A DNA stretch of 41,749 bases from Elusimicrobiota bacterium. Its GTDB lineage: Bacteria > Elusimicrobiota > Elusimicrobia > JACQPE01. The position numbers and the translations under genes are program-made. The stretch lies in NCBI GenBank assembly GCA_016209025.1, contig JACQWW010000079.1:1-41749 (forward strand). The letters are read 5' to 3'. Below are positions 100 to 1,696 of this stretch, piece by piece. Positions within the stretch are counted from its first letter, which is position 1; the number at the start of each line of letters is the position of its first letter. The notes beneath the pieces are model-generated. The model was not told the origin of the DNA, searched no databases, and worked only from the letters and a program-made list of their open reading frames with translations.

Positions 100-238
100 C
101 CGGCTCGCGAACCGCGTTCACGAACCGGAAGTCTGAAGCGCGAAGTGTGAAGTCTAAATATAAAAAAGAATTTTTTTATTTAAGACTTCTAACTTCAGAC
201 TTCAAGCTTCCGGCCGGCGAACGGAGTTCGCGGGCCGG
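100..238 (+). repeat. rRNA insertion element E1 (IVS-like). Its 3' boundary abuts the 3' strand of helix 25
   Basis: GC-rich mini-hairpin 'ccggctcgcgaac cgc gttcacgaaccgg', then a heptamer hairpin 'gaagtct gaagcgc gaagtgt gaagtct' / A+T loop / 'agacttc taacttc agacttc aagcttc', then a second mini-hairpin 'ccggccggcgaac gga gttcgcgggccgg'. Confidence 0.8.
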
Positions 239-261
239 AATGCCTGAGAGCGTGCCTGTTG

Positions 262-356
262 AAGAATGATCCGGCGAGTTACTGGCGGTTGCAAGGTGAA
301 GTCGTCCGTCAAAAGCGGCCGAAATAACCGAAGCGAAAGCGAGTCCGAATAGGGCG
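262..356 (+). repeat. Direct repeat copy 2 of the 95-nt 23S rRNA segment (this copy is collinear with the rest of the 23S)
   Basis: Identical to 1-95. It continues into 'attaagtagccgttagtagacccgaag...', which matches the expected 23S order. Confidence 0.9.
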
Positions 357-873
357 ATTAAGTAGCCGTTAGTAGACCCGAAGCCAGTCGATCTAGCCCT
401 GGACAGGGTGAAGTCCCGCGAAAGCGGGATGGAGGCCCGAAGCGTTATGCGTTGAAAAGCATCTGCATGAGCTGGGGCTAGGAGTGAAAGGCTAATCGAG
501 GCTGGTGATAGCTGGTTCTCCCCGAAATAGTTTTAGGGCTAGCCTGGAAACTTAACCGCAGGGGGTAGAGCACTGGATAGTGTAGGGGGTGCAACCCACC
601 TTCCGAATCTAACCAAACTCCGAATACCTGCGCGCATGTTTCCGGAGTCAGTGCTTGGGGGCAAGCTTCAAGCGCAAAAGGGGAATAGCCCAGACCACCG
701 ATTAAGGTCCCTAAGTGTATTCTAAGTGGCAAAGGATGTGAATTCGCCCAGACAGCCAGGAGGTTGGCTTAGAAGCAGCCATCCTTTAAAGAGTGCGTAA
801 CAGCTCACTGGTCAAGCGAGTTTGCGCCAAAAATGACTCGGGGCTAAGAATACCACCGAAATCGTGGCTGATC

Positions 874-1008
874 CGGTCGTGAACCGAGTTCGCGAGCCGG
901 AAGTCTGAAGCGCGAAGTATGAAGTCTAAAAATAACAAAGAATTTTTTTTATTTCAGACTTCTAACTTCAGACTTCAAGCTTCCGATCGTGGACTTCGTT
1001 CACGATCG
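874..1008 (+). repeat. rRNA insertion element E2 (IVS-like) at the tip of helix 45
   Basis: It sits between 'caccgaaatcgtggctgatc' and 'ggtcggggtaggggagcg' (E. coli 'CACCGAAGCUGCGGCAGCGACGC..UUGGGUAGGGGAGCG'). The core 'ccggaagtctgaagcgcgaagtatgaagtct...agacttctaacttcagacttcaagcttcc' is nearly identical to E1 and E3. Confidence 0.85.
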
Positions 1009-1557
1009 GGTCGGGGTAGGGGAGCGTTGTCAAAACACTGAAGGAGTACCGTAAGGAGCTCTGGAGATTTGACAAGTGAGGATGTCGGAATAAGTAGCGA
1101 TAACGTGGGTGAGAATCCCACGCGCCGTAAGCCTAAGGTTTCCTTGAGCAACGTTCGTCGGCTCAGGGTTAGTCGGTCCTAAGCCGAGGCCGAAAGGCGT
1201 AGGTGAAGGGCATCCGGTTAATATTCCGGAACCGCGGCAATTGCGTTATCAGCCAAGGGGGGACGCAGAAGGGTAGATCGGCCAGGTATTGGTTGTCCTG
1301 GTTTAAGGTCGTAGATAGGCCTTGCAGGAAAATCCGCAAGGCTGTTTGACTCGAAAGCCGAACACGACCCCGCCGTAAGGTGGGGGAAGCGATTCAACCA
1401 TGCTGCCCAGAAAATCCTCGTGGCGAGTAGTTGGCGCGTCCGTACCGTAAACCGACACAGGTAGGCTGGTAGAAGATACTAAGGCGCGCGAGCGAACCTC
1501 CGTTAAGGAACTAGGCAAAATAGCCCCGTAACTTCGGAAGAAGGGGTACCTTAAGTA

Positions 1558-1696
1558 CCGGTTCGCGAACCGCGTTCACGAACCGGAAGTCTGAAGCGCG
1601 AAGTATGAAGTCTGAAAATAAAAAAGAATTTTTTTATTTCAGGCTTCTAACTTCAGACTTCAAGCTTCCGGCCAGCGAACGGAGTTCGCGGGCCGG
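1558..1696 (+). repeat. rRNA insertion element E3 (IVS-like) in the helix 63 region (E. coli ~1710-1750 equivalent)
   Basis: It sits between 'cttcggaagaaggggtaccttaagta' and 'gaaaggggtcgcagtgaaagggcttccgcgactgtttaacagaaacacag'. It has the same three-hairpin layout as E1 ('ccggttcgcgaac cgc gttcacgaaccgg' ... 'ccggccagcgaac gga gttcgcgggccgg'). Confidence 0.8.

Follow-up and report, generated by a model that had tools for sequence, protein, structure and literature searches.

The 41,749-bp contig JACQWW010000079.1 of an Elusimicrobiota bacterium (assembly GCA_016209025.1) was analysed over its whole length and is referred to here as the window. It starts within a 23S rRNA gene that carries three closely related hairpin elements of about 140 nt, each built on a core in which a 4-nt unit recurs with a period of 7 nt. 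These elements are lineage-specific insertions at the tips of helices 25, 45 and 63 (H25, H45 and H63; at H25 judged by the 3' junction only), and they are members of a class of period-7 hairpin repeats that occurs across the clade, with a separate unit in each genome. On the basis of predicted structure and precedent, we consider it moderately probable (roughly 0.55) that these lineage-specific periodic hairpins are excised by RNase III as intervening sequences (IVSs).

Three related hairpins at helix tips of one 23S rRNA gene

The partial 23S rRNA gene and its three elements are arranged as follows.

239..2879, forward strand: 23S rRNA gene from the 3' strand of H25 to the 3' end, 5'-truncated by the contig start (Rfam RF02541)
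100..238, forward strand: element 1, tip of H25, with a GC-rich outer stem, a (GAAGNNN)x4 / (NNNCTTC)x4 core hairpin and an A/T apical loop
871..1010, forward strand: element 2, tip of H45 (E. coli ~1171), with the same core as element 1 and a diverged outer stem
1557..1696, forward strand: element 3, tip of H63 (E. coli ~1710-1745), 95% identical to element 1 over the full length

The original prediction, made by eye, described three near-identical elements of ~140 nt, and a repeat finder bears this out: it places the copies of one direct-repeat family (D1) at 99-238, 871-1010 and 1557-1696, with cores 94-95% identical. Exact copies of a 19-nt stretch of the core, GAAGTCTGAAGCGCGAAGT, lie at 128, 900 and 1586, and a copy with a single mismatch lies at 2898. 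When up to three mismatches are allowed and both strands are counted, the stretch has 7 matches against 0.04 expected, and the pattern GAAGNNNGAAGNNNGAAG has 13 matches against none in 100 shuffles. Elements 1 and 3 differ at only 7 positions (core 94% and outer modules 96% identical). Element 2 is as close to both in its core (94-95%) but is 56-78% identical in the outer modules and 84% over the full length. Every copy has private substitutions, and element 2 has an outer stem of its own. Because of the private substitutions, the elements are not one sequence pasted three times.

The predicted minimum free energies of elements 1, 2 and 3 are -77.6, -77.4 and -79.1 kcal/mol, compared with about -38 kcal/mol for shuffled sequences (z -10.0, -10.1 and -10.7; no shuffle was as stable). 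Each element is predicted to fold into a single irregular rod of ~70 bp that prolongs its host helix, a long continuous stem of the kind that IVSs form. In the core, four 4-bp GAAG/CUUC steps recur every 7 nt with mismatches or wobble pairs between them, and an A7-GAA-U7 tip forms the cap. The GC-rich palindromic modules on either side of the core were found as first quoted. They had been described as mini-hairpins; the sequences are present, but the modules pair with each other, forming 13 perfect GC-rich base pairs plus 5 further ones as the outer stem of one long hairpin. A three-hairpin form was rejected as the equilibrium structure, since the single rod is more stable by 11-22 kcal/mol, but it could exist as a transient, kinetic state during transcription.

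No Rfam family matched the elements at the gathering threshold, and at E <= 1 only sub-threshold models of microRNA precursors appeared, that is, generic long hairpins. Group I and group II introns were ruled out because no intron covariance model matched at either level. A promoter and terminator scan gave no consensus within the elements.

The insertion sites were defined by alignment to E. coli rrlH and to the complete 23S genes of three relatives, for which we use our own labels: L130 (GCA_016205025.1; RpoB 76% identical to that of the window, 23S 88% identical outside the elements), L134 (a groundwater contig from ENA; RpoB 72%, 23S 83%) and L137 (GCA_042563375.1; RpoB 68%, 23S 82%). When the elements are removed, collinearity with all four references returns at H45 and H63, and the 3' strand of H25 directly adjoins the 3' end of element 1, as had been judged by eye. 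Elements 2 and 3 replace the apical hairpins of H45 and H63, with the closing base pairs retained and native 23S sequence on both sides. In all three relatives, H45 and H63 end in short native hairpins only and the native tip of H25 measures ~45 nt, so the elements are specific to the lineage of the window. The three helices concerned are variable and solvent-exposed. As in IVSs, the extra sequence relative to homologues lies at the tips of variable helices (at H25 by the 3' junction only), and its occurrence is sporadic, being absent at H45 and H63 in L130, L134 and L137.

One of the relatives has an insertion of a different position. L137 carries its own ~110-nt hairpin insert (2608-2720) in 23S domain I, after E. 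coli ~278, which folds at -68.7 kcal/mol and whose autocorrelation at lag 7 peaks at 0.40 and 0.56. As a period-7 hairpin inside 23S rRNA, it is the second example in the clade and independent of the first.

About 545 nt of the 23S gene are missing from the window. The RF02541 model of bacterial large subunit rRNA matches the partial gene at 152-2879 with 2222.9 bits and skips 551 model positions near the 5' end. The sarcin-ricin loop sequence was recognized by eye. The order rRNA operon, hypothetical gene, L10, L12, rpoB is shared by all five relatives whose locus reaches upstream of the L10 gene (L129, L130, L132, L134 and L137), and a complete 16S-tRNA-23S-5S stretch is visible in L130, L134 and L137. 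Because the remaining 23S sequence is well conserved, the sarcin-ricin loop is present and synteny is kept, the window operon is a working rRNA operon and not a decayed copy.

Excision, retention or assembly artefact

All three elements had been placed inside a single 23S gene. This holds for elements 2 and 3, which have native flanks, but element 1 is preceded by an exact duplicate of 23S sequence that lies further downstream.

1..95, forward strand: duplicate of 262-356 (E. coli ~575-655, in 23S domain II), forming the anomalous 5' flank of element 1, 100% identical over 95 nt (family D4)
91..99, forward strand: GGGCGUAAA, probable distal 5' strand of H25, of which 91-96 pair with 240-245 in the predicted fold of 80-262

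Bases 91-96 (GGGCGU) and 240-245 (AUGCCU) form a 6-bp closing helix that matches the distal H25 of relatives (GAGGGUUAU / AGAAUGCCUGAG in L134 and GAGGACUAU / AAUGUCUGAG in L130). The final 6 nt of 1-95, AGGGCG, are common to the expected 5' strand of H25 and are also native at 351-356. The arrangement gives a 261-bp loop pattern, in which the 95-mer is followed by a TAAA branch, by the 95-mer again and then by the exit. We infer that the true 5' strand of H25 ends ...GUUCG-AGGGCG-UAAA and that the duplicate was joined to element 1 via the 6-nt microhomology AGGGCG. The junction of ...CCGAATAGGGCG to TAAACCGG would then be the tandem-duplication or variant form, and that of ...GTTCGAGGGCG to TAAACCGG the true H25 5' strand. 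The duplicate itself is probably a contig-end or chimeric assembly artefact. A tandem duplication of 261 bp that is genuinely present in some of the population is less favoured, because it would disrupt domain II of what is presumably the sole rrn operon. Element 1 stands despite its odd 5' flank, given its 7 differences from element 3 and its proper 3' junction.

The duplicated contig end, with its non-native junction to element 1, raises the question of whether some or all of the elements are themselves artefacts, produced by threading a dispersed repeat into the rRNA gene during assembly, and repeats that are 95% identical are difficult to assemble. We consider this highly improbable. Each copy has its private substitutions, and element 2 a separate outer stem; elements 2 and 3 lie exactly at helix tips between native 23S sequences with closing pairs kept; and element 1 has a 3' junction and a 6-bp closing helix that match those of H25 in relatives. 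Moreover, independent assemblies of relatives have the same kind of hairpin in the 23S-5S spacer and, in L137, within the 23S gene.

If the elements are excised, as we think somewhat probable, their outer stems (~18 bp; 11+11 bp in the related spacer copy described below) would be double-stranded in the precursor and would serve as substrates of RNase III. The enzyme would cut the rods out with no re-ligation, and cutting of all three would leave a mature 23S rRNA of up to four pieces held together non-covalently. In other bacteria, RNase III removes ORF-less stems of 100-200 nt from H25 and H45 (PMC8708148, PMC2672173), and short ORF-less 23S inserts at these sites are common (PMC11270868).

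Several points weigh against this reading. The proposed excision is a prediction from stem length and precedent, and the 5' junction of element 1 is anomalous. We know of no IVS site established at H63 in bacteria, and no bacterial case at H63 surfaced in the literature searched, which was not exhaustive. The core, with a mismatch every 7 nt, would be a poor substrate for RNase III, so that cleavage would depend on the outer stem, whose two arms might instead fold locally as separate hairpins during transcription. No rnc gene occurs on the 41.7-kb contig, which is a portion of the genome. As regards the spread of the elements, none of the three has a target-site duplication (flanks GTAAA and AATGC, CTGAT and GTCGG, AAGTA and GAAAG, respectively), and no transposase is evident among the annotated genes of the window.

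A possible but less likely outcome is that the insertions are retained as bacterial expansion segments, which would project as three RNA rods of ~70 bp from the surface of the 50S subunit. All three sites are helix tips at which the rods are closed by the native helix, and a core broken every 7 nt by mismatches or internal loops is unlike the long perfect duplex that RNase III cuts. The palindromic modules could also fold locally first and thereby deny the enzyme a long stem. In eukaryotes, the segments ES7L (H25), ES15L (H45) and ES27L (H63) are long, helical, surface-exposed extensions at these three tips, and we take the positions to be the same as those of the window elements. Eukaryotic expansion segments are, however, retained, lineage-wide and not copies of each other, whereas the window elements are near-identical to one another and absent from close relatives. 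The outer stem, with 13 perfect and 5 more base pairs, would amount to about two helical turns, the usual minimum for an RNase III substrate, and the homologous copy in the spacer lies where processing must occur anyway. Bacterial H25 and H45 inserts of comparable size are, in addition, documented as excised (PMC8708148, PMC2672173). Retention has one precedent in its favour: in an rnc mutant, no effect of an unprocessed IVS on ribosome function was detected (PMC8708148).

Spacer and intercistronic hairpins and the origin of the insertions

A fourth member of the GAAG family lies between the 23S and 5S rRNA genes.

2877..2893, forward strand: CATATCATTCGATC, conserved 3' strand of the canonical 23S processing stem
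2898..2979, forward strand: spacer GAAG heptamer core hairpin, without GC-rich outer modules
2975..3001, forward strand: 12-bp hairpin CAGAAATTCCC-GAT-GGGAATTTCTG, directly 3' of the spacer core; the same composite occurs on the metagenomic contig L006 (see below)
3010..3128, forward strand: 5S rRNA (RF00001, 84.6 bits)

The spacer copy had been taken for a partial one, but its core hairpin is complete, with a stem of 11+11 bp, and shares 76-78% identity with the internal 23S cores. The region 2885-3005 folds at -51.8 kcal/mol (z -9.3). In the relatives, CATATCATTCGATC pairs with GGGATCG.ATGATATGG, located upstream of the 23S gene, and a periodic hairpin follows directly 3' of the processing stem in every relative. 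Its unit differs from genome to genome: GAAG in the window, GTAG in L130 and GTTG in L137 (all with a period of 7), CGGTTAAG in L132 (period 8) and AATAA in L134 (period 9). Given this conserved place in every relative, the spacer hairpin is probably the positionally ancestral, older copy, and it is therefore likely to be the donor or conversion partner of the copies in the 23S gene.

The family also extends into the protein-coding operons. Eight hairpins of the form (GAATNNN)x4 ... (NNNATTC)x4 are found in the window, each directly 3' of a stop codon.

4475..4555, forward strand: GAAT-type period-7 hairpin, gap between L10 and L7/L12
13646..13723, forward strand: GAAT-type period-7 hairpin, gap between S12 and S7
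17647..17729, forward strand: GAAT-type period-7 hairpin, gap between EF-Tu and S10
23540..23622, forward strand: GAAT-type period-7 hairpin, gap between L14 and L24
24858..24971, forward strand: GAAT-type period-7 hairpin, upstream of S8
25382..25489, forward strand: GAAT-type period-7 hairpin, gap between S8 and L6
30777..30859, forward strand: GAAT-type period-7 hairpin, upstream of S13
32406..32516, forward strand: GAAT-type period-7 hairpin, gap between S4 and rpoA

The GAAT pattern has 17 arm matches in the window and none in shuffles. A strict detector of period-7 hairpins finds 11 in the window, 2 each in L130 and L131 and none in shuffles; the spacer copy fails the strict rule and is counted in addition to the 11. 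Among the other periods from 5 to 10, the same detector finds nothing apart from one period-9 case in L134. The corresponding gaps of relatives are either compact (6-50 nt) or hold a hairpin of the genome's own unit. The units are AGTT and TCCA in gaps of L131, GCGGTTAAG in the EF-Tu / S10 gap of L132 and AATAA in the S7 / EF-G gap of L134, the last two as in the spacers of the same genomes. An architectural link of the 23S elements to intercistronic elements in mRNA, proposed at the outset, is thus supported by hairpins of four 7-nt units per arm in eight gaps, and the 23S elements are members of the clade-wide class.

With regard to origin, we propose that the GAAG variant of the rRNA operon would have been copied from, or together with, the spacer hairpin into the three helix tips, by DNA-level duplication, transposition or gene conversion, and that the H25 and H63 copies would be the most recent pair. 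The presence of one family at several non-homologous sites, three in the 23S gene and one in the spacer, argues for copying by transposition or gene conversion, as first suggested, and multiple near-identical copies at such sites are also typical of miniature inverted-repeat transposable elements (MITEs) and REP sequences. The identity of element 2 with the others in the core only suggests conversion, and the whole-length identity of elements 1 and 3 suggests a recent duplication.

Alternatively, the elements may be old, independent helix extensions that have been kept alike by gene conversion with each other and with the spacer hairpin. The cores are evenly 94-95% identical, and the outer stems of element 2 differ from those of elements 1 and 3, as would be expected of conversion tracts limited to the core; the lack of target-site duplications and the use of one genome-specific unit in the spacer and mRNA hairpins of each relative also agree with this. 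We nevertheless regard it as unlikely. Three relatives with 23S sequences up to 88% identical lack a long extension at H45 or H63, which suggests that the insertions are young, and the outer modules of elements 1 and 3 are also 96% identical, as for a recent copy of a whole element.

Outside the clade, a search of 185,579 species genomes with the exact core returned 8 single matches in unrelated phyla, which is about chance level, and none in Elusimicrobia. A degenerate GAAG-heptamer pattern matched at least 120 loci on metagenome contigs. None of the metagenome matches listed contained 23S sequence or a close copy of an element. GAAGNNN arrays and hairpins are common among the matches listed (e.g. 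L018, L030, L038, L039, L046, L092, L098 and L108), which come from soil and groundwater contigs with 31-71% GC. In many cases an inverted pair encloses a GC-rich hairpin with a T-run after it, an arrangement that we read as terminator-like. On contig L006 (JACQXV010000078.1, from a groundwater metagenome-assembled genome (MAG) labelled Woesearchaeota), positions 1-110 hold a homologue of the window's spacer composite, consisting of a GAAG heptamer core hairpin and a CAGAA...TTCTG hairpin, beside an ordinary protein gene. The GAAG type thus occurs outside rRNA operons as well. By eye, the genes of this contig look bacterial, and it may be mis-binned.

We tentatively suggest that the repeats represent an undescribed class of heptad-periodic hairpins, either self-propagating or templated by a factor, of which the 23S inserts would be one outcome. 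Such a class would have about four 7-nt units per arm with a fixed 4-nt core, in a sequence 'dialect' particular to each genome of the Elusimicrobia clade. Its members would always be found behind the 23S processing stem, variably between cistrons of translation operons and occasionally in rRNA helices. Since many metagenomic contigs of very different GC content carry inverted GAAGNNN arrays, the class may be widespread, and it could mark a common recognition site for RNA processing or RNA chaperones, or a common mode of copying at the DNA level. It is speculation that the GTAG heptamers of L130 are related to the GTAG motif of REP/RAYT systems, which they resemble, and equally speculative is a heptamer-binding role of a Csp-type protein, an idea prompted by earlier work on heptamer repeats (PMC4679880).

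Comparison with known systems, and neighbouring genes

The elements most closely resemble the IVSs of Salmonella, Yersinia, Campylobacter and Leptospira, which are likewise ORF-less inserts of ~100-200 nt at the tips of H25 and H45, have extended stems, are sporadic among relatives and are expected substrates of RNase III (PMC8708148, PMC2672173, PMC2801512). They differ in that a single family occupies three helices of one gene and the 23S-5S spacer, with H63 as a third site, and in their strict 7-nt periodic core and their kin in mRNA gaps. Their excision is, moreover, a prediction from DNA.

REP/BIME, Correia and RPE sequences, which are MITE-like, share with the window family the short imperfect palindromes, the intergenic or intercistronic location and the existence of separate families in each genome. 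RPEs can also sit within genes, RNA genes included. Unlike these, the window repeats come with neither a target-site duplication nor a cognate transposase in 41.7 kb, and their arms consist of four heptad units with a fixed 4-nt core. We know of no REP/BIME, Correia or RPE family at three helices of 23S rRNA. Irregular intercistronic hairpins occur in highly expressed operons such as the phage T7 early mRNA and the E. coli rplL-rpoB spacer, and RNase III, which acts there, also processes rRNA. In contrast to the window hairpins, the T7 and rplL-rpoB sites are neither periodic repeats nor copied into rRNA helices. The heptamer arrays of cyanobacteria (STRR) and of Beggiatoaceae (TAACTGA, PMC4679880) resemble the window repeats in their 7-nt period, mostly intergenic location and lineage specificity. 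They are, however, direct repeats of a full heptamer, with a single inverted case reported, whereas the window has paired inverted arrays in which 4 of 7 positions are fixed.

Insertions at H25 and H45 are textbook knowledge, and the kind is known. No account of period-7 inverted-array hairpins or of 23S inserts in Elusimicrobia was found in the literature searched. As far as that search goes, three aspects are new: one repeat family found both in the spacer of a single operon and at three helices of its 23S rRNA, H63 included; the strictly periodic 7-nt construction of the 23S inserts; and their kinship with intercistronic hairpins and with a spacer hairpin that is conserved in position and variable in sequence.

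If the elements are excised, a bacterial 23S rRNA would be divided into up to four pieces via three copies of one repeat, and the operon's own spacer hairpin would be a clear donor of the inserts. If they are retained, a bacterial ribosome would bear eukaryote-like expansion rods at the ES7, ES15 and ES27 positions. Either way, the rRNA inserts are tied to a dispersed, genome-specific, 7-nt-periodic family that also invades the gaps of ribosomal-protein operons. This bears on the origin of rRNA intervening sequences and expansion segments and supplies concrete candidate RNA-processing sites in uncultivated bacteria. The inserts and the duplicated contig end also affect rRNA-based binning, primer design and quality control of MAGs.

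Downstream of the 5S rRNA gene, the window encodes a conserved hypothetical protein, L10, L7/L12, rpoB, rpoC, the str, S10, spc and alpha operons and a cluster of mre, PBP2 and rodA genes. The ORF between 5S and L10 (3162-3950, 262 aa) matches no Pfam or NCBIfam family. Genes of 214-257 aa, also lacking a Pfam family, occupy the same place in L129, L130, L132 and L137, and no gene was called there in L134. In the 16S-23S spacers of L130 (3942-4628) and L134 (928-1644), a TenA/haem-oxygenase-like gene (PF03070) lies between two tRNA genes. At the other end of the window, following the mreB-mreC-PBP2-rodA-DUF2344 cluster, a 5'-partial gene that runs off the contig (40959-41749) appears by eye to be RNase E/G-family-like, with an S1-like N-terminal domain.

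The window also contains other repeats. A second class consists of 9-nt-period arrays built on the palindrome GTC-N-GAC (GTCCGAC, GTCAGAC or GTCTGAC), located at 5016-5059, 16407-16426, 18151-18192, 23974-24013, 30608-30637, 33969-34005, 34977-35014 and 40908-40942; the gaps occupied include those between L12 and rpoB, between EF-G and EF-Tu, and upstream of mreB and mreC. An inverted pair with an 8-nt period (GACGCGGN x4 / CCGCGTCN x4) lies upstream of EF-G at 14221-14311, and a tandem array with 14-nt and 7-nt repeats lies between rpoC and S12 at 13121-13187.

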